A stretch of 64,000 bases of DNA, taken from NCBI GenBank assembly GCA_964276515.1, contig OZ193909.1, forward strand, positions 20,460,001 to 20,524,000, read 5' to 3'. The translations under genes and the position numbers were made by a program. Below, in pieces: positions 2,506 to 45,500 of this stretch. This DNA is from Gordius albopunctatus (taxonomy: Eukaryota). How positions within the stretch are numbered: position 1 is the first letter of the stretch; every line of letters starts with the position of its first letter. The notes under the pieces are model-generated. The model ran no database searches. It was given only the letters and a program-made list of their open reading frames with translations, and was not told the DNA's origin.

Positions 2506-2813
2506 TTCCACAGAAAAAATCCTTAAGGAATGCTGGCGGTTTCCGGCTACGTTGTGGGTATCTCGGTTCTTCCCTAGGCGTTCCTGTCTGGTTTTGGCTT
2601 TGTTCCCTTGTCGCACTTGTTACCCTGTTTTGCATTTGTTCCATTGGCGCATTTGTTCCCACTTCCCTTTCTGGTGATATTCTTTGTGGCCACCCGTTCT
2701 CTTGCCCCAGCGTGGTCCAATCTAGGATTTTCCGTTTCCTTACTTGATCCAGGTGTCGGTGGTGCTTTCTTCCCTGTGCCCATACATCGTAGGAACGACT
2801 CCCGTGTTTGGCT

Positions 2814-5800
2814 TTATCGTGCTTCCACACATTTTCTTGGACCCAGGAACATGCGTACCCACACCAAGTCTCCTACGTTGAACATTCGTGGGTTCCCGGT
2901 CTCTACCCATTGTTGCGGTACGGTTTCCCTTAATACCTCCCATTCGGTTCGCATACGCCTTTTTAACATCATCTCTGCCGGGCTTTTATTGGTTGTGTGG
3001 TGTTTTGTCGATCTATAGTTTTCCAGAAATCTATTTATCCCTACTTCCGACTCGTTCCTCATGATGGCTTCTTTCATTAATCGTACGTATCTTTCTGCCA
3101 AACCGTTCGACGCAGGATGGTACGGAGCTGTCCATCGCTGATTAATCCCTCTCATCTTGCAAATGTTTTTTAAATCCTGTCCTTTGAATTGTGGGCCATT
3201 ATCCGATATTAGCCATGGTGGATTTCCAAATCTCGCAAACGTCTCGGCAAGTTTTTTTATAATGGTTGTCGACGTGGTGTCTTCTAACTTAAACACCTCT
3301 ACCCATTTCGAACTATTGTCAACCATCACGAGGTATAATTTACCCTTGAGAGGCCCCATGATATCGATATCTACTTGGACCCATGGTTTTTGGCTAGGTT
3401 GACACTCTATCAACGGTGCCTTCTTCGCCGCCGTGGCCGTGTAATTGCAATTCCGGCATCCTTTCGCTACGCTCAATAAGTCCTCGTCGAGAGTAGGCCA
3501 CCATATATACTGCCGCGCCACTTCTTGCATTCGCTTGATACCCACGTGGCCCCTATGTAGTCTTTGTAGTACCGCTCCTCGTAACTTAGCCGGAATTAAT
3601 ATTCGTCGCCCTTTGTAATATATTATGCTCTTGGCCTCATGCAACTTTGGCAGGTGTTTTTCGTAGGTGCGTTTTAGCCCACCCGTGACCATTGTGTTTT
3701 GTTTACCTTTCATCCACTCTTTTACTTGACGTAGCCCCGGATCCTCCCAGGTGCGTTGTCTTACTACGTCCAATGAAATAAACGGATTCGTCGAGTCTTC
3801 TGGAATTTCTTCGGTAACCTGATACGCGTGTTCGTTCGGTTTCCTGGACAAGAAATCTGCCGCGTTTTCGGCTCCCTTGTTGTACTCGAACTTGGTTGTG
3901 TAGCCTGATACCATGAGCACCCACCTAGTTAGCCGAGGTGACCATTGTTCCTTGCCCTTTTTGCTCTGGTCGAATATATATACTAGCGGTCTATGATCCG
4001 TCATAATAGTTACGCTTCGTCCCTGTATAAATTCATTGAACTTTTTTAGTCCATACACCACCGCCAGAGCCTCTCGTTCGATCGTCGCATACCGGCTTTC
4101 GCTATCGTTTAACGCTCTTGACGCATAGGCCACCACCCTCCAATTCTCTCCTGGTGCTCGTTGCTGTAAGATGGCCCCTAACCCTGTACTAGAGGCGTCT
4201 ACTACCAGCCCCGTCTCCCAATCTCCACTAAAGTACGCCAGTACGGGGGCTTTCGTAAGGGCGGATTTGATAGCTTCAAACGAGCCTTGTTGTTCTCTAC
4301 CCCAGTGGTACAACACATTTTTTTTCATTAGTTTTTGAATCGGGTGTATGATTTTGGCGTAGTCCTTAATGAACTTTGCAAAGTATGCTGTTAACCCCAG
4401 GAAGGATTTTATTTCATTTTCGTTTGTTAAATTTTTCCACTGCTTGACTATTTCGGCTTTATTGTCGTTGATTTGAATCCCACTGTTACTTATTATGTAT
4501 CCCAAAAAGGTTACTTCCTTCGCCCACAAGTTGCTCTTGGTAATGTTTGGCACGAACCCCCACTTTTGTAACGTTTCTAGTACTTTGAGTAACCGCTCGT
4601 TGTGAATTTCTTCCGTTTCCCCTGCAATTAGTATGTCGTCGATGTATACCGCTACCCCCTCCATGCCTCCTAATATTTGGTCCATTGTTTTTTGGAAAAT
4701 AGCCGCGGCACAATTTAAACCAAACGGCATCCGGTTAACCTTGAATAAGCCCTTGTAAGTCGAGATCGTCAACCGTTGGCTCGTCTCTGGTCCTAATTCA
4801 AGCTGTAAGTACGCTTTCGTGAGGTCTAGCTTCGTACAATAACACGCGTTATCGAGTTTATTTAACAAATCGTCGATTTTGGGTAAGGGGTACATCAACC
4901 CTTGTGCGTATTTATTTATCGTAAACCGGTAGTCTATACATAATCGCAGAGTCCCATCGCTTTTTTTCACGGGTACCACTGGGCTGGCCCATCTAGAGAA
5001 ATCGATTGGTTCTATCACCCCGTCTCTGACCCATTTATTCAGTTCTTCTTCTATTTCTTTCTTCCACGCCATCGTCACTCTTCGCGCGGGGATAAATACG
5101 GGATCTATGCCCTCTTTTACCGGTACTTCCACCGTTATTCCCTTGACTGCTTGCGGGAATTCGTTTCGCTGGCCCTCCCATCGCTTCATCACGTGCTGTA
5201 TCGCTAACTTGATATCCTTCGGTCTTTCCACGTAATTGACCGCGAACCATTCCGCCGCTGTTCTCGAGTTCCAACGCATTTGACGCCATACTTCGGGTTC
5301 GAATTCTTGTATCCAATCGATCCCGCATAGCGGCGGCCCCGCTACATCTGCTAGCAATAACGACAGCTGTTTCCTCGTGTAACCCAATCGGACATCGGCT
5401 TGTACCTTGGCTACGATCTTTATTTCCCCGTGGCCGTAGGCGTACACCGTCGGGACGGCCTCTTTGTTGCGTGGGATCTCCTTCGCCCATCTTTGCGCTG
5501 GTAATATCGAAACCGTAGCGCCGGTATCGACGATAAATTGGAACAATTCGTTATTAATATATATATCAACTGTTAACACATCTAAAGCATGGTTTAACCT
5601 GGGAATCCGGACCGGCCCAGGCCACGCTTCTCGTCTCGCAACTACGCTCCACGCCTCTTCGCCCCCGTCCTGCAAGGTGCTTAGCCCGCCATTTATCGTG
5701 TCGGCCGTTACTGCCAGCTCCCGTAGGCGGTCCCATTTGATGTCATTTTCTGCCAACAGTCTCGCTTGTAAGCTTCTATCGCGCAATCCTATAATGGATT

Positions 5801-6173
5801 GGTCGACGATTCTGCTCTGCACTTCTTCATTTCCGAAGTTGCAGCTATTAGCCCCGGCCTTGAGTCTATTAGCGTACGTGTCTATCGTCTCTCCCTAGCC
5901 TTGTCGGAGCTTTGAGAATTCGTACCTCTTTGCCCTCGTACATGAATTTCTCTGGAATAATTTCCTTAATCGATTTTTCGCTTCTTCGTATGTAATTCCT
6001 GTCAACTCTTGCGGTCTATAACCCTCTAGTATTAATTGGAATGCATCCCCCTCGAGGCTGGTTAATAATAGCGCGGCATTTTGTTCATCTGTCTCCGTCT
6101 TATTGTTCCTAAGGAATAACTCAAATTGGGTTAAGAAAGCGTCGATGTTAGCCGTTGTTTTATATTTCTGCAT
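2814..6173 (-). pseudogene. Gypsy gag-pol polyprotein with one in-frame TAG (5895-5897) in gag
   Basis: ORFs 5895-6173 and 2814-5822 are in the same frame. Motifs: VDTGA protease, YIDD RT, VDAS/TDHRPL RNase H, HHCC zinc finger and DDE integrase (VDIDI, SDNGPQF, NGLAER). Confidence 0.9.
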
Positions 6174-9900: not shown

Positions 9901-12578
9901 TGTTGAAGGGCTGGATCTTTATTCACATAAACTATTAGGACTGGGATACAATAATCGAAAAAGTGACCATCACCGTATATAACAAACGAATATATAAGTT
10001 ACAACCAATTAACGATAATTTGATCGACAACTCGCAGGTCAATAACGTAAAAACGCCGGTAACTAACGTATCCCCGGAGGCACTTCGCACTCCTATTACC
10101 TCTCTACAGTTCCCCCCTTTTCTCAGACAAAATCCTTAAGGAATGCTGGCGGTTTCCGGCTACGCTGTGGGTATCTCAGTTCTTCCCTAGGTGTTCCTGC
10201 CTGGTTTTGGCTTTGTTTCCTTGTCGCACTTGTTCCCCTGTTTTGCATTTGTTCCCTTGGCGCATTTGTTCCCTCTTCCCTTTCTGATGATATTCTTTGT
10301 GTGGCCACCCGTTCTCTTGTCCCAGCGTGGTCCAATCCAGGATTCTCCGTTTCCTTACTTAATCCAGGTGTCGGTGGTGCTTTCTTCCCTGTGTCCATAC
10401 ATCGTAGGAACGACTCCCCTGTTTGGCTTTTATCGTGCCTTCTACCCATTTGCTTGGACCCAGGAACATGCGTACCCAAACCAAGGCTTCTACGTTGAAC
10501 ATTCGTGGGTTCCCGGTCTCTACCCATTGTTTTGGTACAGTTTCCCTTAATACCTCCCATTCGGTTCGCATACGCCTTTTTAACATCATCTCTGCCGGGC
10601 TTTTATTGTTTGCGGAGTGTTTTGTCGATCTATAGTTTTCCAGAAATCTATTTATCCCTACTTCCGACTCGTTCCTCATGATGGCTTCTTTCATTAATCG
10701 TACGTATCTTTCTGCCAAACCGTTCGACGCAGGATGGTACGGAGCTGTCCATCGCTGATTAATCCCTCTCATCTTGCAAATGTTTTGTAAATCCTGTCCT
10801 TTGAATTGTGGGCCATTATCTGATATTAGCCATGGTGGATTTATAAATCTCGCAAACGTCTCGGCAAGTTTTTTTATAATGGTTGTCGATGTGGTGTCTT
10901 CTAACTTAAACACCTCTACCCATTTCGAACTATTGTCCACCATCACGAGGTATTATTTACCCTTGAGAGGCCCCATGATATCGATATGTACTTGGACCCA
11001 TGGTTTTTGGCTAGGTTGACACTCTATCAACGGTGCCTTCTTCGCCGCCGTGGCCGTGTAATTGCAATTCCGGCATCCTTTCGCTACGCTCAATAAGTCC
11101 TCGTCGAGAGTAGGCCACCATATATACTGCCGCGCCACTTCTTGCATTCGCTTGATACCCACGTGGCCCCTATGTAGTCTTTGTAGTACCGCTCCTCGTA
11201 ACTTAGCCGGAATTAATATTCGTCGCCCTTTGTAATATATTATGCTCTTGGCCTCATGCAACTTTGGCAGGTGTTTTTCGTAGGTGCGTTTTAGCCCACC
11301 CGTGACCATTGTGTTTTGTTTACCTTTAATCCACTCTTTTACTTGACGTAGCCCCGGATCCTCCCAGGTGCGTTGTCTTACTACGTCCAATGAAATAAAC
11401 GGATTCGTCGAGTCTTCTGGGATTTCCTCGGTAACCTGATACGCGTGTTCGTTCTGTTTCCTGGACAAGAAATCTGCCGCGTTTTCGGCTCCCTTGTTGT
11501 ACTCGAACCTGGTCGTGTAGCCTGATACCATGGGCGCCCACCTAGTTAGACGAGGTGACCATTGTTCCTTGCCCTTTTTGCTCTGATAAAATATATATAC
11601 TAGCGGTCTATGATCCGTCATAATAGTTACGCTTCGTCCCTGTATAAATTCATTGAACTTTTTTAGTCCATACACCACCGCCAGAGCCTCTCGTTCGATC
11701 GTCGCATACCGGCTTTCGCTATCGTTTAACGCTCTTGACGCATAGGCCACCACCCTCCAATTCTCCCCTGGTGCTCGTTGCTGTAAGATGGCCCCTAACC
11801 CTGTACCAGAGGCGTCTACGACCAGGCCAGTCTCCCAATCTCCATTAAAGTACGCCAGTACGGGGCCTTTCGTAAGTGCGGACTTGATAGCTTCAAATGC
11901 GCCTTGTTCTCCCCCCAGTGGTACACCACATTTTTTTTCATTCGTTTCTGAATCGGGTGCACAATTTTGCCGTAGTCCTTAATGAACTTTGAAAAGTATG
12001 CTGTTAACCCCAGGAAGGATTTTATTTCATTTTCGTTTGTTAAATTTTTCCACTGCTTGACTATTTCGGCTTTATTGTCGTTGATTTGAATCCCACTGTT
12101 ACTTATTACGTATCCCAAAAAGGTTACTTCCTTCGCCCACAAGTTGCTCTTGGCAATGTTTGGCACGAACCCCCACTTTTGTAACGTTTCTAGTACTTTG
12201 AGTAACCGCCCATTGTGAATTTTTTCCGTTTCCCCTGCAATTAGTATGTCGTCGATGTATACCGCTACCCCCTCCATGCCTCCTAATATTTGGTCCATTG
12301 TTTTTGGAAAATAGCCGCGGCACAATTTAAACCAAACGGCATCCGGTTAACCTTGAATAAGCCCTTGTGCGTCGAGATCGTCAATTGTTGGCTCGTCTCT
12401 GGCCCTAATTCCAGCTGTAAGTACGCTTTCGTAAGGTCCAGCTTCGTAAAATAACACGCGTTGTCGAGTTTATTTAACAAATTGTCGATTTTGGGTAAGG
12501 GGTACAGCAATCCTTGTGCGTATTTATTTATCGTAAACCGGTAGTCTATACATAATCGCAGAGTCCCATCGCTTTTTT
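9901..12578 (-). mobile_element. Ty3/Gypsy copy 2 (3' LTR, PPT and RT-RH-INT; 5' half lost)
   Basis: LTR 9901-10108 (TG..CA); polypurine tract AAAAGGGGGGAAC at ~10109-10121; internal region highly similar to ~2515-4967 but with frameshifts and stops. Confidence 0.92.
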
Positions 12579-13375: not shown

Positions 13376-13640
13376 TTAGGTCTTGTCTTAATATCGGATT
13401 CAGATTCAAATGGCGCGAATTTATCTTTATCAAATATCCGATTTGATTTCACGTGTCAAACTCGGTTTTAATTATTAATATTTAGTTTTTTGATAATTAA
13501 AACCGTTTTTTAGTTCATTTCAACTCTTGAGATGAATCGCTGTTATATTATGCGTCTGAAATGTAAATCTGCTGCTGTGAATTCGAAGTTAAGACACGGC
13601 AATGTTATAACCCGTGCAACGATTTTTACAAGCCCTTAGG
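13376..13640. mobile_element. Non-autonomous DNA element with a related inverted copy at ~18628-18985
   Basis: Shared blocks ATCGGATTCAGATTCAAAT, CACGTGTCAAACT and GTAAATCTGCTGCTGTGAATTCGAAGTTAAGACAC; CTTAGG at both ends. Confidence 0.55.
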
Positions 13641-14403: not shown

Positions 14404-14698
14404 TATATTATGAGCTCTATCCGAATGCTCATGCACGGAGGAAACGGTTATAATTATTTTACTTAATTCAAAGTAAACCTCTTATAAATGAAATAGATGG
14501 GAGGACACTTTGTTTCAATAGCGAGTGACCTTCAAATGGATTAGTATATTTAAATTTATCAATATTTTTGCAATGTTTTGTTTTATAATTATGAATCGAC
14601 CATTAGACTAAATGACATTTTATATAAATTGGAATTTATAAAAATTATGGGTAAAATTTTATAGAATCATCATTTAGCTCTTTCCTATTTATCCAATC

Positions 14699-15032
14699 AT
14701 AGCTGTTAGGCATCTATGATTGGACCTGTGGGTTCCGACAGGGCATGCCCTGTTATCCCCCACAGCGTTTATTAGTAATATACTCATAAACAAAAATAAC
14801 TACAGGCAAGCAAAGTGTAAAGTACTAAGTTATGAACGACGAGCGAGGTGTGACATGAATCATGCGAAGAAGGAGAAGTGGCGCGCGCGTCGATAAATGT
14901 AATAGATACAACAGCTGGTGGCGAAAATTTATATATACTTGTAAGGAATAAATGGGAGAAAAGGTGTTATAAGGTAAAACGTATAACGCGAAAATTCCAA
15001 AGAGCGTTGGTTTAGTCAGCGGTTTTCCTTTT
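14699..15032. repeat. Left arm of the 334-bp terminal inverted repeat
   Basis: Reverse complement of 17868-18201; no mismatch seen by eye. Confidence 0.95.
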
Positions 15033-15052
15033 ATAGGTGCGTATGATAGTGC
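14925..15052. repeat. 128-bp direct repeat, 3' copy
   Basis: Identical by eye to 17694-17821. Confidence 0.95.
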
Positions 15053-15184
15053 GTGCAAGGGTTTAGTTCTGTTCTACACCTTCATTTATGGAAATTTCGC
15101 CTCCAGCCCAAGTTGACCAATCAAAGAGGTCCTCTTCTTCGAAAACGTCTGGGATGGTTTCGCTCTCAGGTGGCTCTCCCGATA

Positions 15185-17097
15185 CTATGGATGGGACGGT
15201 GTATCTTTCAGGGGGGAGCCAGGTGCGTGATGGATAGTCGGCCGGGTTTTCTTCCGTCGGTATCCACTTAATATTGTACCTTATGGCCAGCAGGGCATTG
15301 AGCCCGTACTCCTTTACGAACCGTGAAATGAGTTCCTCGATAATTGGAGAGTTTGACCCCCCCCTTCATCAGGACGTAGTATGCGGTTGTCGAGTCGGTG
15401 CGGATCCTTGGGAAGGGGGTTCCTCCGAATCTAGCGACCAGGTACCCGTATATTGCTCCCAACGTTTCGCACAATGTGATGTGGGGATCCGGGGGGAGCG
15501 TGAAATTGAGTGCCGCGTCCTCGAACGTAATGGACAAGTTGCTGGTTCCCCATGTTATGCCGATGTGTTCGCTCGATGCGTCGGTGTAGACGGTTAGGTC
15601 CGGGGGAACGTATAATGGGATTCGTTGTCTCAGGGATGTAATTATGGCAAGGAGCTTGAAGCAGGCATGGTTCATGTTGAATAGCCTTGACCGGTCTGAT
15701 AAGTACGCGTAGAAGGGAGCTAGAAGCTTTGACATACCTGTCAGGTTGTATAGGAAGTAGTTGAGCACTCCCAGTGCTTCCAGTAGGATTTGGGTGGGTG
15801 GTGGTGTGTTAGTCGCAAAGGCGAAGAATAGTATGTCAGCCGCGTATTCTAGTCTGGTGATCACCTGTGGGGTGCATCTGATCGAGTGGTCGATGAATGA
15901 TAGGTTTAGGCCCAGGTACTCGATGTCGCGTGTGGGAAGAATTGAGGATTTTCGTGCGTTTATCGTCAACCCCCACTCCGAGGCTAGAGTGAACATGGAT
16001 TCTAGATCCTCTTGTACGTCTGCGTGTGTGTCTCCATATATCAGGATGTCGTCTAAATAGACGTTGTATTTGCACTTGCGTACTGCCTTTTTGGTGAGAT
16101 CAGATACAACCATTTGTAGGACGTATGGGGAGTAGGACGCTCCCATGGGTAGAACCTTGTATCTGTATTTACGTGTTTTATATGTATAGGCGGCGAATTT
16201 GCGGGCCGATACGTTTAGCGGGATGCTGAAGAAGGCAGCTTTTAGGTCGATTTTGGCGACCCAATTTGCTCTGCTCAGCTGTCTAGATGTAAGGGGGATG
16301 GATGCCAGTTTGACCGGGTAGTGTATGTAATTTTTAGATACCTGAGAGAGGTCCGTAATTACCCTGGCATCCCCGTTGGTTTTTGGAATAAAGAATGTTG
16401 CCGATTTTATTATTTCTTTCTCCGTTACTTCCACGACGTCTGCGTCGACCATTGTCTGAAAGTATTCCGGTTTTACTCTCGATATGGCTTTTCTCCGGGA
16501 TGTGAGGAATATGCCATTATGTTCCCGAATTTTGTTCATATCGAATCTCGGGGTGAATCCCTTCCGGGCTATCCGCCTTGTGAATGGGGATTGAGAATGA
16601 TGTGGCCGAAGTTTTGAGGTGGAAATGTCTAGCTGACCGGTGGGAGATGGGAGCTGGGGCTCTTTATTCCACCGGAAAATAGATTTGTGGAGGCCAAAAA
16701 TGGGAAGCGTTTCCGATCCCATTTCCCGACCGAAGGCGGCCTCCACCTGTTGTATACGCTGTTCGACTTCAGGGGCAAGAAAGAATATATTGGAATAATC
16801 CATATTTGTAGGCAATTGGATCGCTCCCGTCGCCCCTGACGGGAGTTCAGATGGGGAAAAGATCCAGCGGCGCGTCTCCCTTATTTGGAAAATAATGCGT
16901 GCGAGCCAGCGAGGGGACCTGGATGTGTTTCCCTTATCGAGAAGCGATACGCCCGAGGGCCCGACTTTCCAGGATCCTGCCAGAGCCTTAATTCTGCGCC
17001 TTACTCCTGGCAGAGGCCGGCGTCTTTTTGACGTGGCGGCTCTTTGGGAGGCTTCTGCCTCTGCCAGCGCCAGGAAATAACTGCCTTCTTGGCTGGA
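15185..17097 (-). CDS. Reverse transcriptase-RNase H polymerase; one frameshift in a G8 run at 15357-15364
   Basis: Motifs FFIPK..RVITDLSQVSK, IDLKAAFFSIPL, LPMGASYSPY, YLDD, IEYLG, VYTDAS, HITLCE and RTDS. Removing one G restores KWIPTEENPADYPSR and a stop at 15185-15187. The frame is stop-free up to 17097; the first ATG is at 16803. Confidence 0.88.
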
Positions 17098-17674
17098 CTA
17101 CCTCCAGGTTAGGGATATTCCAGTCTTCTGCGAATGACTTGTCGTTCCTGATTGCTGTGGCCCAATTGAAATTGATTGCCGTAGCGAGTGTCGTGAGGCG
17201 CGCTGTGGTTTCTTTAAGTAAGGCTTCAGGGGATTCCTCTGATAAGGTTTCCGCGACCAGGAATATGTATTGACTCTCTTTCCTGTCTCTTTGTGAGACC
17301 TTGGTCGGGAATTGTGCCATGAGATCTTTCAACTTGTTGATTTTATCTTCGATCTCTTTTAGCTTCTCCGCCGGGGTCTTTTGGACCGGTTCCGGCTGTA
17401 CTATGTTTATAGCGGGCGGAGGAGCGGCTCTTTGGACATTAAGTTGTTGGATGAGGGTGGCAATTGTTTGCTGTGACTGGTTGAATTGTGCTTGTGCCCT
17501 CCTATTTTGGTCCGCTATGACCCTTAGGACTTCTGTCATGTCCGGGGGGTCTTCCCCCCTACCCGACGGAGTTGGAGAGCCGTCCCTAGATGAGCTCTCT
17601 TCATGTGGAGGGGGTTTTAACGCCGGGAAAGGCTGCGCCGCAGGTGTCACGGGGTTTCGTGCTGGTCTTACCAT
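16988..17674 (-). CDS. ORF1, gag/core-like nucleic-acid-binding protein (228 aa)
   Basis: Intact ATG ORF upstream of pol; Pro-rich N-terminus, predicted coiled-coil/helical middle, Arg/Lys-rich C-terminal tail; no CCHC knuckle. Confidence 0.75.
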   Translation of the reverse strand: MVRPARNPVTPAAQPFPALKPPPHEESSSRDGSPTPSGRGEDPPDMTEVLRVIADQNRRAQAQFNQSQQTIATLIQQLNVQRAAPPPAINIVQPEPVQKTPAEKLKEIEDKINKLKDLMAQFPTKVSQRDRKESQYIFLVAETLSEESPEALLKETTARLTTLATAINFNWATAIRNDKSFAEDWNIPNLEVVQPRRQLFPGAGRGRSLPKSRHVKKTPASARSKAQN

Positions 17675-17693
17675 ATTTCTCCTGAAAATTTAT

Positions 17694-17821
17694 AAATTTA
17701 TATATACTTGTAAGGAATAAATGGGAGAAAAGGTGTTATAAGGTAAAACGTATAACGCGAAAATTCCAAAGAGCGTTGGTTTAGTCAGCGGTTTTCCTTT
17801 TATAGGTGCGTATGATAGTGC
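17694..17821 (-). promoter_or_regulatory. 128-bp direct repeat, 5' copy, containing a TATA-like box
   Basis: Minus-strand CCTATAAAAGG lies about 125 nt upstream of the ORF1 ATG. Confidence 0.6.
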
Positions 17822-17867
17822 ATTTAAGCCATCCTTTTTGAATCCGGGCATTGATTTCAGTTGCGCA

Positions 17868-18201
17868 AAAAGGAAAACCGCTGACTAAACCAACGCTCTT
17901 TGGAATTTTCGCGTTATACGTTTTACCTTATAACACCTTTTCTCCCATTTATTCCTTACAAGTATATATAAATTTTCGCCACCAGCTGTTGTATCTATTA
18001 CATTTATCGACGCGCGCGCCACTTCTCCTTCTTCGCATGATTCATGTCACACCTCGCTCGTCGTTCATAACTTAGTACTTTACACTTTGCTTGCCTGTAG
18101 TTATTTTTGTTTATGAGTATATTACTAATAAACGCTGTGGGGGATAACAGGGCATGCCCTGTCGGAACCCACAGGTCCAATCATAGATGCCTAACAGCTA
18201 T
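17868..18201. repeat. Right arm of the 334-bp terminal inverted repeat
   Basis: Reverse complement of 14699-15032. Confidence 0.95.
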
Positions 18202-21197
18202 TAAACACGACAAGCATGGATAATTACCAATTTTTAAATAAAACTTAGCATTTTCTTCAAAATACTTTGCACCATGATTAAAAATACTTAGCATAACGAA
18301 TTTAGCATTTTTTGATAAAATACTTAGCATTTTCAATAAAAAAACTGGTGATAATTTATTTTTACTTGGCATTGAAATAGCAAACGAAACACCCATGAAT
18401 AAATAGCATTTTTTACATAAACTTCCGCAAAGATAAGACTGCAAACTTTAAATCTAAATATTTTCCTTTAAATATTATAAAACATTTCACAAATTCTAAA
18501 CATAAATTTAACTATTTAAAGAAAATACCTATATCACAAGTATCCACTGCAATTATTACTAAATTAAGAAGTCGGACAAGACAGACAGGGCGGATGGCTA
18601 ACTAAAGGTGAGAGTTCATTAAATTGCCTAAGGACCTTTCTTAATATCGGATTTTGTTGCGCGCCAAAAATCGTCGTGCGGGTTATAACATAGCCCCGTG
18701 TCTTAACTTCGAATTCACAGCAGCAGATTTACATTCCTGACGCATGACGACAGCGCCAGCGATTTTGAAAGATGCAACATTTTATGTCTTTAACTTTTTA
18801 GGTGTAACAACAGCAAAGTTTAGATTTAATCTCAGTAGAGTTTAAATAAACAAAAAGAAACGTTTTAAACTATCAAAAAACAAATTATTAATAATTAAAA
18901 CAGAGTTTGACACGTGAAATTGAATCATCGGATATTTAGACAAAGATCAATGAGCACGATTTGAATCTGAATCCGATGCCCTAAGAATTAATAATATTTA
19001 TAAGAAATCGCGAGCGCCAGGTTGACAAATACCACGGACACAAGCGTGTATTTGCTAAGCGGGGGGGCAGGGTTTTGTGGAAGGTAATGGCTAAATAATC
19101 AATAATTTCGTTTTTGTCGCACTAAACCAGTAGTTGTAGAGATTAGCTGATATCAAATGCCTCCTTCAAAATTTCTTCTAAATATTTATTAGAAAAAAGG
19201 AATTAATTTTTAAATTCGCTCTTTATTTATCCAATATGTGGTCTAAATATTTTTGCTAGATCTACTAAAAAGGAATATGATGAATTTCAATGTAAGTTTT
19301 ATTATAAAATTTGATTTATTTTAATATTTTTTGATATTTTTAATTTTTTAAATATTTTTATTCGAAATAAAATAAATTTCATAGTTTATATTTTAAAATT
19401 TATAGCAAAATGTAAGTTTTATTATAATAATTTGATTTTTATATGTTTTCTATTTATTTATGTTAAATATAAATAGAATTTTATTTTTTTTTTTATTTCA
19501 AAATTTATGACAAATGATGATATTTATATACAAATATTTATTTAAAAGGAAGATTTATATTGTTTTTTATTTTAGATGGCTTTATTAACCTTTTTTATGA
19601 GTTATAAATAAATTAATCACATAAATGGAAATCAACTAAATTAGAATTAAATAAAATTCAAGGATGTTTTATATTTTGTATAAATTGAGTTTTTAATTTT
19701 TATTTCAAAATTAATAACATTTCAAGATGTTTATGGTCAAGTATTTATTAAAAAGAAAGATTTAAATTGTATTTTTATTCTTTTAGATTGCTTTAACTCT
19801 TTTATGAGCTATAAATTAAAAAAAAACACAAAAAAAGCCATTAACTAAATTAAAAATTAAATAAAATCTAATCATAAAAGCTTTAAAGGCTTAATATTTA
19901 AAAATTTAATTTTCTAAATTAAATATATTAAAAAATTTATATATTTTTAAAAATAATTTAATTAAATAAATGGGATGCGTGTTTAAACATAACTTGAATT
20001 TAAGTGATTGTCAATTAGTGTGATTGAGAAAGGCCATTTTCCTATTTTTATTTAATTTAATTTGGTCAATCAACCATTTTTTGTTTTTTACAAAATTTTA
20101 AATTTAGATTGTAAAATAAAGATTTAATATTTGTAAAAATGAAAAACCACTTGAATGTTTCACAATTTTTATTGTTTTGATTTTATATAATAAATATTTT
20201 TTGAGCAAAAATGTTAGAAATGTTTTATTAAATTGAAATTTTTTAAACAAAATTATAATTCTTTAATTTAATTTGTAAAATACAATTTTTATATATAAAA
20301 ATGGAAAGCCACTTAAATATTTCTTAATTTTTATTATTTTAGATATTTATAAAAGGAATATTTCTTGAGAAACAATGTTAAAATGTTTTAATAAATTGAA
20401 AATAACGATTTTCAGCTCCATTTAAGATCTAGAACATCTTGATTGATTAAATATTTTGACATTTGGTGACATAAAAATGAAAGAAATCTGAAAAAAATAT
20501 TTTTAATCAATTAAAAATCGATAAATCTCTATTTTTTATTTTATTTTATATTTATTTGCTATTGTATTTTTGAAAAAAAATAAAAATTTTACAATTTAAA
20601 AATTTAATTTAATCATTTTTTTGTACTTGTTTTTATCATTTTTTGTTAATGAATAAAAAAAATCGTTTTCGTGATACAATTATAAGCTTATCGATTTGTT
20701 GCTTAAAAATAAAATTACAAAGATGACAAAATAAATAATTTAATTATTAATTTTAGTTAAGCTTCGAGTTTAAAATTAATTAAGATTGTTATTTAAATGC
20801 TAAGCAAGAAATAACAAAATGCCAAGTATTTTATGCTAAGTTTTTTTTACTGAAAATTCCAAATATTTTATTGAAAAACGCTAAGATCTTTATGCTAGGA
20901 AGAATTAAAAACTTAGCGAAATTGGTTAAAAAACTTATCAATCACGAATAAAACTTTGTAATTAAGAGAAACTGAGAATTAAAATTAATTTTTTTTATTT
21001 TAATTAATAATTTATAAAAAAAAATATATAATTTTGTCAAAAATTATAAAAACAATTATTTTAAATTTAAGTATTTTTATAATAGACCTTTTAGATAGTA
21101 TATAATATTTTAATTTCCTTAAAGAGCTATTAAATGATAGCTATTAAACTAAAGGTAATTAAAGAAAAAATCGATATAATGTTTAACCTATTATTCC

Positions 21198-34957: not shown

Positions 34958-36010
34958 CCTTGATATTATAAATTAAAATGAACTAATAATAACCAATTGT
35001 TCAAATAAATATTAATTTATTTATATAAAATAATATAATTTTAAATTTTGAAAAGCATACATTATAAATAAATGAAAGCACTATCACTAAGTAAATACCT
35101 TTCAGGACTGCATTTTTTCACCTAATAATATTATATTTATATACACCTAATAATCAATTTTTTAAATAGCTATTTGATTTAATCTATTGCTTGGAGCTAA
35201 GGACTTTAAAAACATGTCAAACTTTAATTTTAATAAAAGTAAAGTGGAAATTAATATTAATTTTGAAATTATGTAATTATGTCAACTCAACAATTTGATA
35301 CAATTTTCACCCTTTATTGTCTTATACAGCATCTTTATTTTTATTTGTAATATTATAATTAAAACTTTTATTCAGAAACAATAATAATAACCTTTATATT
35401 GTTTCTTAATTAAGATTAAAAAAATATTGGCGGAAGGGGCCCGGGGCCCAAGATTTTTCCCTTGGGGGGGGGGGGGCAGCTACGCCCCTGTTATCCTATG
35501 CTAAAAAATAAAATATCAACAAATTGTTTAAAACTAATATAACACGAAATGGAAATGAATGAATGTGACAGGAAAAATGTTCCTAAATAAATGATTGAAC
35601 AAATAATAAATATATATACACCCTTTACATTTTCATATACGAATTAAGCCCATCTAATAATATTTTATTATCCAATTTCTTTTGTTCTATACACTAAAAA
35701 TCGATATTAAAAAAATCTCAAAAAGGCAGTTTGTTCACATTTAGTTTGAATTTCAGATCCGTTTATATAATTTTAAGTCCTTCCGAAACTTGTTTCACCC
35801 TCTGGAACCAGATTTTAATTTCAAAGCGCGTGAGTACCCGCTCGGGGGAAAGGTTTAGGTAAGTCCGCAGACCGGATTCCCCCGTGCAGACATGCCTCTT
35901 GAATCCCAATCAGGTGCCCGTTCCTATTCTAGCCAAGCGCAAAGGCAGGAGGCGCTGCTGAATGAGATGGATAGAGCAGAGGGAAATGCTAATAAACTTC
36001 ACATATGTAG

Positions 36011-36437
36011 TAACTAAGTTTTTGTTATAATATTGAAATATTTCGTTTATCAAGTAAATGTTTATTTCGTCAGTAAAATTACTAATATACAAGTTTCTAT
36101 ACACTATTTAAGGGCTAATATTAACTAAGTTTTTGTTATAATATTGAAATATTTCGTTTATCAAGTAAATGTTCATTTCGTCAGTAAAATTACTAATATA
36201 CAAGTTTCTATACACTATTTAAGGGCTAATATTAACTAAGTTTTTGTTATAATATTGAAATATTTTGTTTATCAAGTAAATGTTTATTTCATCAGTAAAA
36301 TTGCTAATATACAAGTTTCTATACACTATTTAAGGGTTACTATTAACTTTATATTGAAATATTTTGTTTATCAAGTAAATGTTCATTTCGTCAGTAAAAT
36401 TACTAATATACAAGTTTCTATACACTATTTAAGGGTT
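36011..36437. repeat. 111-bp tandem repeat, about 4 units
   Basis: Units start at 36011, 36122 and 36233; the fourth unit is slightly deleted. Confidence 0.93.
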
Positions 36438-36883
36438 ATGGGTGAGCGGAAAAACTTGGACTAGAAATAAATTCATATAATATCCTGTATGCTGTAAAAC
36501 GATACAATTTGTATTATATCAAAATTTTTAATATTTCGAATCAACTAATTATCGCCACTTGAGCCAACGGCTGTAAACTAGAGTAGCTTAATAGTTTTCA
36601 TAATTAGTAAGAACCTAAATATAAAAATATTTTATAGTTTTAATCTCGTTTAGCCATAATGGCTATTCAAAACAATGAATTTTAAAAACAAAGTGTCTAC
36701 AATTTAAATAACAAATATGACTCCTGCTCAACAAATCTTTATAATAACAGCGTTACTCACACCTAAGATGAGGGATTACATTTTATCAAATGACACACGC
36801 AAATTTATTTGTAGCGAATTAACAACAATTATAATGTTGACCAATAGATGTCATTCAATTTATAAAAGATCAAAAAAGCTAGA

Positions 36884-39325
36884 TCAATCGATCCTTTCAT
36901 AAAAATAGAGGTAAGCCAAATTTAGGGGAGGATTTTCCGATAGCGCCACGCGTTCATCGTTGTATATGACCCATTTACCATCTTTAAGTACGTGGGCCAC
37001 GTAATGACCGGAAGTCAGGGTGTTACCCATATGACTAACACATCCTACCAATTTGTACACCGGGGCGCCGGTGTCAAGATTGCTAACATTTGAGCCACCC
37101 GTCAGGCCTTGTAAAACTCCATTCGAATTCAGATTAGCCTCAAGGAGTGGATTACCGCTATTCACGGTTTGACTGGGATTGTCAGCCAAGAACAGCTGTT
37201 CTTGACGACTAAACAACCAATCAACGGCTCGCTCTACGTTATTAGACGTAGCTCGTAAAGCTTGTATTGCCTGTTCTCTGGAAAACCCCATGTCCAAAAT
37301 GGCGGCACAATGTTCTTCGCTAACGATAATTTCCGGTTTATCAGCTGTCACATGAGGATCCTCCATAAGGTCATCGTCCAAATGGCGAAGTATCCAGTTG
37401 GATGCCTCTTCCACGGATGCGTTTCCCGTCTTTGCCAGCCCGCGCTCGCATTGGAGATCGGTAAAGCCCATATCCTTTAACTGGAGCAGGAATTGGGGGT
37501 TGGGAGTAAATTGTTGACCTTGTGGAAACAACTCGCTCTCATCTCCCATTAACTGCTCGTCCGACTGAGGCCCACGAGCTACGTATTGTGCCAAATCCAA
37601 GATGGAAGGCACGTCTGTAATCATGGCATCCAGCTTGCTGGGTAACCATTGATCGACGCAATCTTCTAGGACATACCTCTTTACGTGAAACAGAAGATAT
37701 TTGGGAAATGTGGACAATCGATTGGTCTTGACCACTTGCGTATCGTAGCCAATCGTCAAATCACCGCAACATTTTATGGTTTCCGGCACGAAATGGTGCT
37801 TCAAAACGTCGTTAAAAGGAATCCTGGCAAACACCTTATCATCTCCGCCACCCTTTTGTTTACCCTTTTCGGCCACATACTTCTCGTATTCTTCTCTGTT
37901 GGTCGCTTTATCGAGCGGCAGGGTTAGGGAAATGTGATTTTCCACCTTTTTGGTGTACTTGCATCTATTGGTTGACAGGCATTGCCACCTCTCTTCGATG
38001 CACATGTCAAAAAATTTGGACGGTGGAGCTTTGTTGTAATTATTCACTTCCATTTGATTCATGAAATGCATAAAAAATTCGTGAGCATCTTGTTGGTGAT
38101 TGTTCCTAAATTCGGCGTAACATTTCTTAATCATCAAATTAAAAAGTTTTGCTTCAATGCCATTATGACTTGTGCTATCATCTGATGTTGGTGGAATGGA
38201 ATATTTACCACTTAGAAGACCGTAGGAAATTTTACAAGTTTGGAAGTTGTAATTATCCATGGGATTTTTTAAATTATTCAACATTTTTTGGGTACAATCA
38301 TCATAAAAATATTGCTGAAATGCGGGTAAAGAAAATACAACTTGTACTATGGATGAAATGTAACAAGTATTGCCCAAATTATGTAACCCAGTGTACCCCT
38401 TCCCATAGATTGGAGTTAATTTTTGGGATGTTTCTTGTATAGCAGCCCATTCTTTATAATTTTTGTTCATTTCAATTTCAAGTTCTGAAATTGTTTTATC
38501 AGTTTTTTCCAAATTTTCAACATTAATTCCAAAATGCAACAAGTGTTGAGCAAGATTAGGATCTTCAACCATGTCATTTTCATCATATGAATATACATCT
38601 GCTCCTCCATGTTTAGTTATTGTTCCAATTTTAACAGCAAGAGGATATTTCAAAGCATCATAATGTTCTAGAGCATGATTATTACCACCTGTGCCATCAA
38701 AATTTTTCCTTCCACATAAAATTGTACCATCTGTTAAGTTTAGCCATAAATTTTCTTTAATATTACACTTTTGACAGCTGGCATTTAGTAAATTTACCTT
38801 AGGTGGATTAGGCAATTGCATGAGATTATCGTTTTTAGTAATAGGCCGTGTCTCACCATCCCAAGCAAATTTTTTAATTTCCAAATCCAATTGCTTTATA
38901 ACTGATTCACATTTAATTATGCTATTAATGGAATTCATGATAAATTGTGGAATATTAGAGTTATGAATAGATATTGTGTTAAAATCAGGCAGTATTATTA
39001 ATTTGTAGTGTTCCAAATACTTGCTTTTTTTATCAACCTGAAAACCCCCATCAACTCCAATAGCCATTTTTTGTACTTTTTCTTTTGGTTCTTCCTCCTC
39101 ATTTAACTTTTCTTGCAGAATATTAAGGTAGATTGATCTGCCTGTAGTCTTGTAATAATCAAGCATATGAAGTTTGTCAAATCCATAAAAAGTCTCCAGA
39201 CAAACGTATAAACCATCATTCATATCAGGCGTATCAAAGCACATCAAGCACTCATCCTTAAAAACACATGATTTTTCAATATCAGCTATCTTAACAATGT
39301 TTTCATATTTGAGAAAATCACACAT
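36884..39325 (-). CDS. USP5: Ubiquitin carboxyl-terminal hydrolase 5/13 (isopeptidase T), single exon, 813 aa
   Basis: ZnF-UBP (NLWLNLTDG.ILCGR..GGNNHA), Cys box GLHNLGNTCY, QQDAHEF, two UBA domains (DMGF), His box HMG..SGHYVAH. Confidence 0.95.
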   Translation of the reverse strand: MCDFLKYENIVKIADIEKSCVFKDECLMCFDTPDMNDGLYVCLETFYGFDKLHMLDYYKTTGRSIYLNILQEKLNEEEEPKEKVQKMAIGVDGGFQVDKKSKYLEHYKLIILPDFNTISIHNSNIPQFIMNSINSIIKCESVIKQLDLEIKKFAWDGETRPITKNDNLMQLPNPPKVNLLNASCQKCNIKENLWLNLTDGTILCGRKNFDGTGGNNHALEHYDALKYPLAVKIGTITKHGGADVYSYDENDMVEDPNLAQHLLHFGINVENLEKTDKTISELEIEMNKNYKEWAAIQETSQKLTPIYGKGYTGLHNLGNTCYISSIVQVVFSLPAFQQYFYDDCTQKMLNNLKNPMDNYNFQTCKISYGLLSGKYSIPPTSDDSTSHNGIEAKLFNLMIKKCYAEFRNNHQQDAHEFFMHFMNQMEVNNYNKAPPSKFFDMCIEERWQCLSTNRCKYTKKVENHISLTLPLDKATNREEYEKYVAEKGKQKGGGDDKVFARIPFNDVLKHHFVPETIKCCGDLTIGYDTQVVKTNRLSTFPKYLLFHVKRYVLEDCVDQWLPSKLDAMITDVPSILDLAQYVARGPQSDEQLMGDESELFPQGQQFTPNPQFLLQLKDMGFTDLQCERGLAKTGNASVEEASNWILRHLDDDLMEDPHVTADKPEIIVSEEHCAAILDMGFSREQAIQALRATSNNVERAVDWLFSRQEQLFLADNPSQTVNSGNPLLEANLNSNGVLQGLTGGSNVSNLDTGAPVYKLVGCVSHMGNTLTSGHYVAHVLKDGKWVIYNDERVALSENPPLNLAYLYFYERID

Positions 39326-40831
39326 TAAAATGGTTTACAAATCTCACGAATGAATGTTCGTCATATGTTTTTTACACGATGATCACTATACATTTTTGAA
39401 GATAAGGTAAGAAGGGTTAAGTTTAAACCAGGAGTGTTAAAGTAAATATTAGGATTAAAATTGCGATAAAGTTATAACATGGTTAATTAGAAAAAAAAGT
39501 AAAATGAGAATTTTAAACAGGCTTATTAATAGATTTACAAATCATGCAATACATTGAACTACTTAGGTTTTGGATTATTAGGAAGTCTAATAAAATTCTA
39601 ATCATATTTATACTATTAATCTTAAAACTATGTGCCTAATCCTTATTAAATATTAATTTGGTTTTTTAAATTATAAATATGGAATGTATCTTCTATATTT
39701 GATTCTAATCACTATATTTTTTCATATTTCAAACAAATGCAGTATATTGCTTCAAGGGCATAATCCCGAATTTTAAGGCTACATTGGTCTCTAACATTTT
39801 TTATAAAAAAATTGACATTACTCAAATTGTATAGGAAAATTTTTTTAACATATAATCAAGAAAACTTGGATAGATTTATTACAAGTGCAGGCAACCAAAT
39901 ATATTTCAATGCCCAAAAATATCATCTGTACTTAAAAATCAACATTGTATGGTTACAACTGAGAATCGTATTTAAAATAACATACTGTATTTCGCATCAT
40001 AAAAACTGAAATATTTCAAATAGGAAAAGTTTTAAACTTATTGAAAATATCTCAGAGGGTCAACAGGGTAATAGCTTTTGAAATATTTTCTTAAAAAATA
40101 TACATTTTCTTCTGGTTTAACTATATTTGCATTTTTATTAAACTCATCAAATATTACATACATCTATTTAATGCTAATGAGAAGACCCTTTCGGGATTGT
40201 TTTATTTAATATCCAATTACAAGAGCAAGTGTCTTTTGAGAAAAATAAGTGCGTTTATATAATCGCGTATTAATTGAATAAACAATTAAATTTGTGTCGA
40301 GGTATAAATAAATCAATTTAGTGGTGTCTCCGCCAGGTATGCTTGATTGGTCAATTAACGTCGTGAAGTAGTAAGGTAATGTAAATGAGACAATTAAGTC
40401 AATTGACGCAACAACCCCTTCTCAGGGGGTGGAGGATACCACAATTATTTTAAATTTTAGAGAATGCAGCCCCCCCTGTCAAACCCTGGCTACGCCAATG
40501 TTATTAGGTAAATAAATGAATATTAATTTTAGCTTTACTCAGTAGTTTGATTTTGGATTAATAATGTTTTATAGCCCCTGCCCTACAGTTCATTTAAAAT
40601 TTCCAACATTTTCTAACTTTTTTCTCCACTTCACTAACGCTTTATAATACACCGGTCCCATGCTGAATTTAATGGATAAATAAATTTTGAATTTAAACTC
40701 AATTGTTTCTTCCTATACTTCCCTTATAGGTATTAATTAATTTGGGATAGACGCGAGGGGGGAACGATGAAGAATAAAAAGAGGGTCTTGAATTATAGTG
40801 TAATTCTTAAACTCTTTTACGGTTTTAGCGT

Positions 40832-42517: not shown

Positions 42518-45500
42518 ATGGAAGGAGAAAATTGTGATTTTTCTTACCTACTTAACTTAGAGCCATTAACTTTAGGAAATTCTACTCAAATACCAGTTGC
42601 TTTGAAGGAAAATCCCATTGCCTTACTTGAAAGTATAACTAAAGGAGATGATGGAGATAATAGGATTTCAAATGTAAAATTTGGTTTAAAAAGCAATATA
42701 TTTGTTTAGGATGCCTCTAATCAAAGAGTAGATTCGGATGATAATTTTTTAAATGAAATATCATCTCAATATATTCAAGGCGTTATTTCATTTGATTTGT
42801 ATAAAGATATATTGAGCAAAATAAGGTTCAAAAAAGGTATGTATATATATTAATTTAAAAAAAAATATAGCTGACGTCACGTAAAGACAATGCTAAGGGC
42901 GGCAAAAATGTATTAGAAGAAGAATCTTTTGATGAAGATAGTGAAGAAGAAAGTGATGAAGATTATAAACCAGCATCTGAGGCTGAAAGTGATGTGAATA
43001 TGAGTGATGAAAATGAATTAAGTAAATCAGATATCCAAGAACATCAGAAAACCAAAAGAGAAGACAAACGTAAAACACGATTACCTAAGCATTTACAAGG
43101 TTTAATGGGAACTGCGAATCTTTCTTGGGTTAGTGGCAACAAAATTGAGGCAGAAAATATTTGCAACCAAATTATCCAGTACACTAATAAAAATTTTATT
43201 AAAATTTTATTAATAAAGAGCAGCACCTTCAGCTCATGAGCCTTATAGTTTGTTAAGTTTAATTTATGAAGAAGGAGGATTGTTTGAAAAATCAAATCAA
43301 TATGCTCTGATAGCGGCCCATCTTGATTGTTCAAATTCTCCAGATGCTTGGATAAAACTTGCAGAAAATGCCAAAAAAGATGAAAAATATAACATTGCTG
43401 CTGATTATTATAGAAAGGCAACGGCAATATTTAGAAAGTACTTACTGCAAAAAAAACTTTTGGAAGATAACATTATCAAACAATACATTGACACACATAA
43501 TGAATCAGCCATTTTACATGAAAAATGTGGTGAAATTAGTAAAGCCTCTCGAGGTTATAATACTTTTTACAATACTTAATGCATATTTGTTAAAATATTA
43601 GACTATCAGAGCATACTAAATCTTATAACACATCAAAGGAAATATAAAGATTTTGTTGATGCAGAGTATAAATCAATTTTTATAAATACAACCCAAATAT
43701 TGGCCAAACTCCATCACTCAGCAAACAACTTTAAAGAAGCCCATGCTTGTTTGAAAGTTGTTTTTGACAGATACGACATGAAGACTATTGATATTGGTTT
43801 ACTTAATCTCTTCGTAGATATGCAGGTTCATATACTCTTTCCATCAAATTAGTGCTTTTAATCAATTATGTTACTTGCACATTATGATACCTTTATTGAA
43901 AGTACACTTCAAAAGTAGCTTATAATTTATTTAAAAAAATAATTTTTATTTTTATATATCAAGTTGAATCAATTTTACTACCTTGAAGCCTTGCAATTGT
44001 TGGGACAATTTTGTGGCATAGACTGGACATTGCCAGCCAACACATCTCAATCCAACCAATTATCAGATTACCACGGAGTTTCCATTTCAACTATGATACC
44101 TTCTAACTTTCCCATAGATTTACAAGTCAAATTAGTCATATGCCTAATTCACTTGCTCAAAAATCCACAACATCCTGGCGACTATAATTTTTCCGTTCCG
44201 TTTTACCAAAATTTGCTGGAATACCTGGAAAGCTCGGTGCTAGAAGTTGAAGCCAACGCCTTCGGAGATTTAATTATAGATATAACCGAAGCATACCGGG
44301 ATTGCCTGGGTGGGAGTAAGCGACAGCAGGAGAACGATGTATACGGAGAAAAAACTTTTTTAAGTTACGCTCGGGTATTGCCTTTTTTCCACAAAATTTT
44401 GGGCCTCAATGCCGGCGATGGTATAAGCGTGGCGAGAGCTACCACTTATACCAACGTCCCGGGCATTTGGTTGGGGTACGGAGAAGCGCTAGAAACCCTG
44501 GCTCAGCCTCGACTGGCAGTGCGGGCCTTGGAAAAAGTTGTGGAGTTAGCACCACACCATCAGCTATCTCAATTTAAGCTGGAACGTATGAGGAACGAAG
44601 TGAAAGGTAAGGTTGCAGGCAGGCTCAGGCCTTTGCTTGTAAAGTTATTCAAAGTCTTGACTTCACGGTAGATGGTTTAGTTAATTAAATGAATTTTCGT
44701 CTGAGACGGCTCGTTGATTAAATGTTAGAACCTGGTACTTCTGACCGCCTGAATCTCAATTCGTCCCGAGATGGGGTCGGCTCAGGAAAATTTAATGAAA
44801 TCATTGTGCTCGGCCCGAACAAAATCCATTATGCAGCATGGCTTAGTCACCAGACATTTGGGGGATTTTTAAACCTATAAACCCGTCGGATAATTATAAT
44901 TGCATTGTCTCTGTAGAGTTGATTCTGTTGATGTCATTCGATAAAATCGGTCGGTTTGGATTGATAACCTAGGAGGATGGATTGAATATTCAATATTATG
45001 TTAATTCAGTTAGTTATTTTAATCATTTGCCCGCATTAGTATCGGGGATCGAATCTCAAAGATCGACGAAAACTCGATCAGAAGTAGTTGGTGCTGGGAC
45101 TAAGGAGGAAAAATCTAAAAAATCCGTGCACGAATCTGCTCCTTACCCCGCTCCACCTATTACGTTGACCATGTTGACTAACATCCTGAAAGATGTAACC
45201 GCTTGCCAGGAGTGTCTGGATCAGTGCTCGCAATATTACGAGGAATTTCGGATGAACCTCGAGCCGGGGGCCAAGAAATCGGCGGCTCGTGTCAATTTTT
45301 TGAGCCTCGGCCTCTCCATTTTCTTTTCGTTGGCTAGCGAAAATTTGTCGATCCCCAACTCTGAAACCTTTTACAAGGCCCTAGCTTTAACCGTTGTCCG
45401 CGAGGCCGAGCTCAAGTTGGGGGTAGATCTCTAGAATTTTACTCACGTGTTGATTTAACTTGGTTTATGAATAAATTAGTGGAATTATTCATCGTAGTTT

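Follow-up and report, generated by a model that had tools for sequence, protein, structure and literature searches.

A broken copy of a multicopy reverse transcriptase-RNase H retroelement from Gordius albopunctatus, with no integration enzyme found in it and a likely place beside the hepadnaviruses

A stretch of 64,000 nucleotides (nt) of Gordius albopunctatus DNA (GenBank assembly GCA_964276515.1, contig OZ193909.1, positions 20,460,001 to 20,524,000), hereafter the window, contains a retroelement copy at positions 14692 to 18201 on the minus strand. An earlier reading made from the letters alone (the sequence-only reading) had described an element with two open reading frames (ORFs) at this place, and its coordinates and anatomy held. 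Both ORFs lie on the minus strand. In the sense direction the element consists of an inverted copy of its 3' end, 48 nt of a long interspersed nuclear element (LINE), a direct repeat (repeat a), ORF1, pol, a second copy of repeat a, a variable stretch, AATAAA and a double hairpin. The GC content of its body is 50%, versus 29% in the flanks. Open frames of at least 30 amino acids (aa) number 71, the longest one without an assignment having 148 aa; seven of them were scanned against Pfam, the remaining frames being of 99 aa or less.

The 5' end is made of three pieces: repeat a, the LINE piece and the inverted copy of the 3' end. The inverted 5' arm (17868-18201, minus strand, 334 nt) is the exact reverse complement of the 3' end minus its last 7 nt, and matches 14699-15032 with no mismatches. 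Similarly, the two 128-nt copies of repeat a (5' copy, 17694-17821; 3' copy, 14925-15052; both minus strand) differ at no position, and they enclose an a-to-a unit of 2,769 nt. The sequence-only reading had rightly reported these repeats as identical and had concluded that the element was young. That conclusion does not necessarily hold for the family: both arms can be copied in one event, and most contigs of the sister copies, which are known from short public contigs (three runs of two studies, possibly including the source sample), are 85 to 95% alike. No RNA data set was listed as containing the element, a result that carries no information about expression.

The filler between the arm and repeat a (17821-17868, minus strand, 48 nt), whose LINE origin had been missed, derives from the reverse transcriptase (RT) coding region of a LINE that we take to be of the RTE type, with the LINE sense on the element strand. 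It is 98% identical to positions 2167-2214 of the window, inside that RT region; the LINE continues beyond the two edges of the filler in 53 and 56 contigs of run X1, and the joints of the filler overlap by 1 to 2 nt. The presence of a LINE piece between the inverted arm and repeat a suggests template jumps. Downstream of the 5' repeat a, a 10-nt word (17684-17693) recurs at 14923-14932 and is a mere candidate for a repeat of the DR1/DR2 type of the Blubervirales. A TATA-like run at 17706, within the 5' repeat a, may have a promoter role, and an acceptor-like TTTTCAG between repeat a with the 10-nt word and the ORF1 start codon may serve in splicing. No convincing target-site duplication was found, the candidate CTATT overlapping the arm; the 2- to 3-nt TA/TTA match at both flanks is at chance level in AT-rich DNA. 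A 7-nt complementarity (TGGATAA) to the left end (14688-14695) resumes about 14 nt beyond the right arm (18202-18222), as if the arm had once been longer.

ORF1 (16988-17674, minus strand; frame 17689-16988) encodes 228 aa from an ATG at 17674, with a predicted proline-rich start, coiled coil, three-helix bundle and basic tail. A single-sequence model (predicted TM-score, 0.34) matched only generic helical bundles: in the PDB three-helix bundles of that kind, and among viral folds nothing under an E value of 0.001. The Pfam scan gave no match to ORF1 above the cut-off, comparison with the stored loci and proteins gave none, and neither did a profile of the core protein of hepatitis B virus (HBV) type, in a search that had no distant control; the sole match of the latter profile in the element was a 37-aa frame on the plus strand (E, 0.06). 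The best Atlas match (0.78, DUF4806) is a lead only. ORF1 is called gag-like by its position only.

The pol frame is open from 17097 to 15268 and overlaps the end of ORF1; in the window copy, 184 nt separate the ORF1 stop from the first pol ATG. From this ATG, pol (15364-16803, minus strand) comprises a short N-terminal part, the RT with a YLDD motif, the thumb/connection and the start of RNase H. Pfam identified RVT_1 in it (E, 2e-28) and nothing above the cut-off in the other six frames. The frame breaks in a homopolymer run (15355-15365, minus strand), where the relatives from Gordionus have a single frame and where sister contigs differ from the window copy. The RNase H tail, with the motif NPADYPSR and an acidic C terminus, follows in a separate frame (15365-15063, minus strand) that ends 46 aa past the RNase H motif, with no methylase behind it. 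Its stop lies 10 nt from direct repeat a and 30 nt short of the inverted arm; the distance of some 130 nt to the terminal repeat that had been stated was too long.

All five pol motifs quoted by the sequence-only reading for their likeness to HBV polymerase were present in the translation. The likeness itself is real, counterparts having been seen for all motifs apart from VFADAT, but it is not specific to HBV: the pattern NPAD..[ST]R occurred in 26 of the 268 proteins examined, among them at least five methylase-type DIRS pols and one Ty3-type protein. The predicted structure of pol (mean predicted local distance difference test, 86) was compared with a viral structure library made up of families other than DIRS. 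By E value, its top viral matches were caulimoviral and retroviral RTs, whereas by root-mean-square deviation HBV P was the closest of the matches longer than 350 columns (4.2 Å over 366 columns, both structures being predicted models, among the 50 viral matches listed). Solved structures gave generic RT matches only. A Penelope-like identity was considered and rejected, the RT being of the LTR/DIRS type and accompanied by RNase H.

The 3' non-coding stretch behind repeat a (14774-14924, minus strand) varies among sister copies, with low summed contig depth and many differences. For its part, the terminal module (14692-14773, minus strand), formed by AATAAA and two stacked hairpins, occurs in far more contigs than the element body does. 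It folds as two hairpins with z scores of -6.9 as RNA and -6.6 as the opposite DNA strand, none of 200 shuffled sequences being equally stable; an Rfam scan of the module returned no family and no ribozyme, with two weak matches under the gathering score. Sister contigs lose their match at 14773, the first base of AATAAA, with loose ends in 12 and 8 contigs, and their joints tie this hairpin end to RNase H at 15190, 15300 and 15303. In one sister contig of 2,052 nt, the only one with a listed layout, hairpin and RNase H both lie within the first 561 nt, leaving no room for a recombinase behind pol in that copy; in the same contig the hairpin end abuts a piece of RNase H in inverted orientation, so that inverted end-joins recur.

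Enzymes that could account for integration or priming were sought by profile. A tyrosine recombinase (YR) profile built from eight Ngaro loci found nothing under an E value of 5 in the 1,942 six-frame segments of the window, in agreement with the sequence-only reading; in control searches it matched two of three DIRS proteins (E, 1e-9 and 4e-6). The profile of the hepadnaviral terminal protein (TP) found nothing in the element or in 17 pols of the family and of the HEART-like group described below, whereas a version built without Toolik virus still recovered the TP of that virus (E, 8e-16); a profile-profile comparison for TP gave 0.6%. No Dam methylase match was found in the window or in the Gordionus pols. 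The seven frames scanned against Pfam contained no match to a protease or an integrase, nor to PF00242 or PF00336, and a search for an internal complementary region (ICR) yielded at best a single 9-mer that matches the terminal 60 nt. Judged by these searches, the element has no YR, integrase, TP or methylase.

Sister contigs span the whole element in two runs, mostly at 85 to 95% identity, and joints within them suggest internal deletions among the copies. Relative to flank contigs, summed depth was approximately 33 to 52 times higher over the RNase H tail and 166 to 253 times higher over the terminal hairpins, a rough sign of many copies and not a copy number. Both ORFs are under purifying selection across these copies. 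Counting the best-supported subset of variant places listed by the tool, third codon positions accounted for 16 of 18 variants in the RNase H tail (silent bias, p = 2e-6), 10 of 12 in ORF1 (p = 5e-4) and 6 of 8 in the pol body (p = 0.02), compared with 2 of 5 in the part that precedes the pol ATG. In the overlap of the two pol frames, six of seven variants fell at third positions of the tail frame and none of the seven at those of the main frame. Since this variation tracks the tail frame, the family encoded one continuous RT-RNase H, and the break near 15355-15365 belongs to the window copy. Depth also rose over the ORF1-pol junction (16616-17220), up to approximately eight times that of the body and like that of the terminal hairpin; this segment is not repeated within the window, and the stretch of high depth at 16900-17100 showed no unusual fold (z, -0.35). 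The peak may reflect short non-autonomous derivatives or a cis signal.

The only close relatives found were proteins of Gordionus, a horsehair worm, with 36 to 42% identity. A word-indexed protein search gave 81 matches, the best one from Gordionus (38% identity; E, 4e-84) and the next at 1.5e-18; a second Gordionus protein was found later. Among 1.84 billion representatives, four matches better than 1e-67 and three further fragments were members of the family, and all six family proteins that were looked up came from Gordionus. Where a Gordionus pol extends through the whole of RNase H, it finishes in an acidic tail or terminates shortly afterward, without a methylase. Viral and metagenome contigs yielded no loci of the family or of the HEART-like clade, and motif scans of viral contigs for nackednaviruses, proto-nackednaviruses and Ngaro returned HBV only or nothing. 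A literature search that did not include Gong and Han (2018), who reportedly described the HEART retroelements, produced no description of the family, so that overlap with the anatomy of HEART1/2 is possible. Further methylase-free RT-RNase H proteins (P0114, P0269-P0291, P0122, P0142, P0151, P0112 and others) were observed, mostly on contigs of 2 to 3.6 kb, and the motif W-x-H-[ILV]-D-[DN], typical of Ixodes HEART rows, occurred in 36 of the 313 stored proteins. "HEART-like" is a label of the present analysis for proteins with likeness of motif, judged by eye, to the Ixodes HEART rows in the accessible part of the supplement of PMC12691608.

Six trees were built from rows other than VIPER/TATE and the published HEART sequences, the Ngaro rows being taken from eukaryote-like contigs inside metagenome-assembled genomes (MAGs). 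In the most careful one, with 26 hand-picked rows, DIRS and Ngaro were united (99/98) and the family grouped with the Blubervirales, including Toolik virus, and with seven HEART-like rows (81/92). In a 112-row tree, cut from 136 rows by dropping near-duplicates, it joined HBV and methylase-free short pols with a support of 93. Quick trees of 50 and 43 rows, run with a mixture model and without P0306, supported the grouping at 90 and 85, and the DIRS-Ngaro branch at 99; trees of the RT only and of the segment from thumb to RNase H, both with P0291 dropped, gave it 91 and 92. All six trees recovered the family beside the Blubervirales and outside DIRS/Ngaro and Ortervirales (support, 81 to 93), the family itself forming its own long branch (100/100). 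The approximately unbiased (AU) test rejected the joining of the family with Ngaro and with DIRS (p = 0.002 in each case) and was compatible with union with the Blubervirales (p = 0.42) or with the clade of P0114 (p = 0.14), a stand-in for HEART by a motif that the window pol itself does not have. A profile of HEART-like proteins scored Gordionus P0001 at 245 bits, whereas Ty3 reached at most 148 and Toolik virus P 116. The polymerase likely sits on the HBV side of the retroelement tree, a placement that comes from trees of moderate support and not from plain similarity. By the features tested, the family appears to be no member of DIRS, Ngaro or the Blubervirales and to be of HEART grade.

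The reading that we favor, to which we give slightly better than an even chance, is that the window holds a broken copy of a multicopy RT-RNase H family with no integration enzyme of its own, likely of a HEART-like grade beside the hepadnaviruses. Its movement, for which we infer hairpin priming, regeneration of repeat a, fold-back copying and an insertion route, could proceed as follows. An RNA would start at repeat a, cover ORF1 and pol and end with the 3' module. The terminal hairpin would prime or recruit the RT, and ORF1 would package or chaperone the RNA. The RT would jump once it arrived at the template's 5' end, first copying repeat a from its 3' copy, possibly via the shared 10-nt word, and this jump would restore the upstream control region. 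In the window copy, the RT would next have read 48 nt of LINE RNA and last its own first strand, yielding a panhandle with perfect arms, and the DNA would enter the chromosome by host break repair or at a nick of a LINE endonuclease. As a precedent, the model of DIRS-1 in the accessible text of PMC7192593 regenerates the left repeat from its right counterpart, and priming by a 3' hairpin has been suggested there for that element.

A number of observations weigh against this reading. By plain similarity, pol scored 72 bits with HBV, versus 97 with DIRS and 99 with Ty3, and an HBV profile ranked it approximately 38th of 268 proteins, under many DIRS pols. RNase H profile comparison, with only two family rows, gave 99% for DIRS, 99% for HEART-like proteins and 97% for Blubervirales, and the region before the RT was best matched, weakly, by DIRS (42%). 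The key branch was never starred in any of the trees and has long branches nearby, one DIRS row fell inside the grouping in the thumb-RNase H tree, and a position of the family as sister to DIRS plus Ngaro was not rejected by the AU test (borderline p = 0.056). Moreover, VIPER/TATE elements carry a YR in the order gag-YR-RT/RH, with RT/RH last, and their RNase H groups with hepadnaviruses, according to the consulted portion of PMC6681497. The element could also derive from a YR retrotransposon, VIPER-like or basal DIRS-like, whose recombinase was lost, its insertion depending on a YR supplied in trans. Like DIRS-1, it has inverted terminal repeats, the longer one at the right end, and a 3' hairpin; the TA/TTA match would fit, though at chance level, as would the otherwise unexplained depth peak over the ORF1-pol junction. 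Nevertheless, neither the element nor the window contains a YR, and where DIRS-1 requires both an ICR and a YR (available sections of PMC7192593) the element offers one 9-mer at best. There is also little space for the missing gene, given the short interval from ORF1 to pol and the overlap of their frames; most of this junction is covered by collinear sister contigs, which only partly excludes the presence of a YR at this place in the sister copies, and no methylase follows any Gordionus pol that reaches the end of RNase H. We consider this derivation, the main rival, rather unlikely, while allowing it a real chance.

The sequence-only reading had proposed either a new retroelement lineage near the DIRS-hepadnavirus junction or an endogenised pararetrovirus-like agent. 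The former, without an integration enzyme, stood up: pol fell outside DIRS/Ngaro, no frame held a YR, and sister contigs join the hairpin near the RNase H tail. The latter can be recast as a non-enveloped, reverse-transcribing exogenous virus that predates TP and entered the germline repeatedly, with ORF1 as an unrecognised capsid and the a-to-a unit as its circular genome. A 128-nt terminal redundancy around a unit of 2.77 kb would suit such a virus, as would purifying selection in a replicating population, the AU result for the Blubervirales and the many HEART-like relatives on contigs of 2 to 3.6 kb; one rotifer proto-nackednavirus is likewise described without a recognisable core in the part of PMC12691608 that was available. 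However, TP is missing in a search whose control recovered that of Toolik virus, no core was matched, the hairpin module, which is the most widely shared part, lies outside the a-to-a unit, and the many copies, some internally deleted and others extra hairpin-bearing ones, resemble transposon derivatives. The endogenised agent was not upheld, and we judge a viral origin of this kind improbable. Finally, the element may be real and its 5' inverted arm with the LINE filler a one-off repair product or an assembly chimera, uninformative on how the family moves. None of the contigs listed spans either inner joint, 17821 or 17868, the filler is known from this assembly alone, which also counts against the reading we favor, and the runs may have been made from the source sample itself. 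Sister contigs seldom include the middle of the arm, whose depth is about one fifth of body depth or less, indicating that at this identity copies do not as a rule carry both arms. On the other hand, exact contigs in two runs reach from each flank 26 to 30 letters into the arms, the bar of the tool for a bridge being 31, and the 2,052-nt sister contig also has an inverted join at its hairpin end. This last explanation seems to us the least probable of all.

Several other features of the window were observed. An older inverted repeat (13393-13627 and 18666-18977, 83 to 96%) encloses the element and is probably a non-autonomous DNA transposon hit by its insertion. A Ty3/Gypsy pol (2511-5894) truncates the LINE at 3-2510, which belongs to the source family of the filler; 2.46 kb of that pol recurs at 96% at 10124-12578. 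Long frames encode an uninterrupted deubiquitinase of 816 aa (36887-39334), which we take to be of the USP5/USP13 type, and a TPR protein (43943-46807) presumably resembling a TFIIIC subunit; their length suggests an intron-poor host. A tandem repeat with a period of approximately 111 nt lies at 36008-36438, its units being 91 to 98% alike. Outside the window, Ngaro-type sequence, most of it with a YR frame, appeared in contigs of bacterial MAGs (L018-L020, L022, L023, L025, L027, L030-L033 and L035) and is probably host contamination; three Ngaro-bearing MAG contigs each had two opposite-facing matches.

In the copy in the window one sees both ends, a second selected gene, a 3' hairpin module that is conserved and marks left by template jumps; so complete a picture, from one end to the other, is rare for this little-understood group. 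Because the family has many copies, and relatives in a genome that has been assembled, priming and insertion become testable by comparison of copies. Dozens of methylase-free RT-RNase H proteins lie on the same side of the tree, and the grade thus seems to extend well beyond the handful of rows described so far. As a tentative and somewhat doubtful extension, the family might be a relic of a stage before the protein priming of HBV, an autonomous, hairpin-primed and nuclease-free class spreading in animal genomes as panhandle DNA, with insertion at nicks made by LINEs or through the repair machinery of the host. The methylase-free RT-RNase H proteins mentioned above would likewise belong to a large grade that gave rise to the Blubervirales.

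Among known systems, LTR retrotransposons such as Ty3/Gypsy and Troyka differ from the element, which has no protease or integrase match and repeats only part a directly; an identity with Troyka, which has protease, integrase and LTRs, was rejected. The element differs from Ngaro in having no YR and in its layout, a-ORFs-a-b without an inner copy of b, instead of split direct repeats. With DIRS-1-like elements it shares inverted terminal repeats, a 3' hairpin, a gag-like ORF1 overlapping pol and a related RNase H, but it has no YR, methylase or ICR and lies outside the DIRS-Ngaro branch. VIPER/TATE, as far as the consulted text of PMC6681497 describes them, are similar in their last ORF, RT/RH, with its hepadnavirus-like RNase H, and differ in that their middle ORF encodes a YR and their direct repeats are split; they lie outside the present trees. 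The Blubervirales resemble the family in an RT-RNase H ending in NPADxPSR, the lack of an integrase, a size of about 3 kb and a similar predicted packing of RT and RNase H, whereas the family has no TP, core match, PF00242 or PF00336, and has many chromosomal copies with inverted ends. As for the HEART retroelements, the window family differs in a canonical YLDD and its own long branch, and its ORF1, both ends and hairpin module are visible, in a tree made of rows other than the published HEART ones. The likeness lies in an invertebrate RT-RNase H element grouped beside the Blubervirales, as HEART is in the accessible part of PMC12440569, where its mobilisation is called unresolved; proteins with the Ixodes-HEART-type motif group near the window family, and HEART-type elements have been proposed as the source of hepadnaviruses in the available text of PMC12691608.

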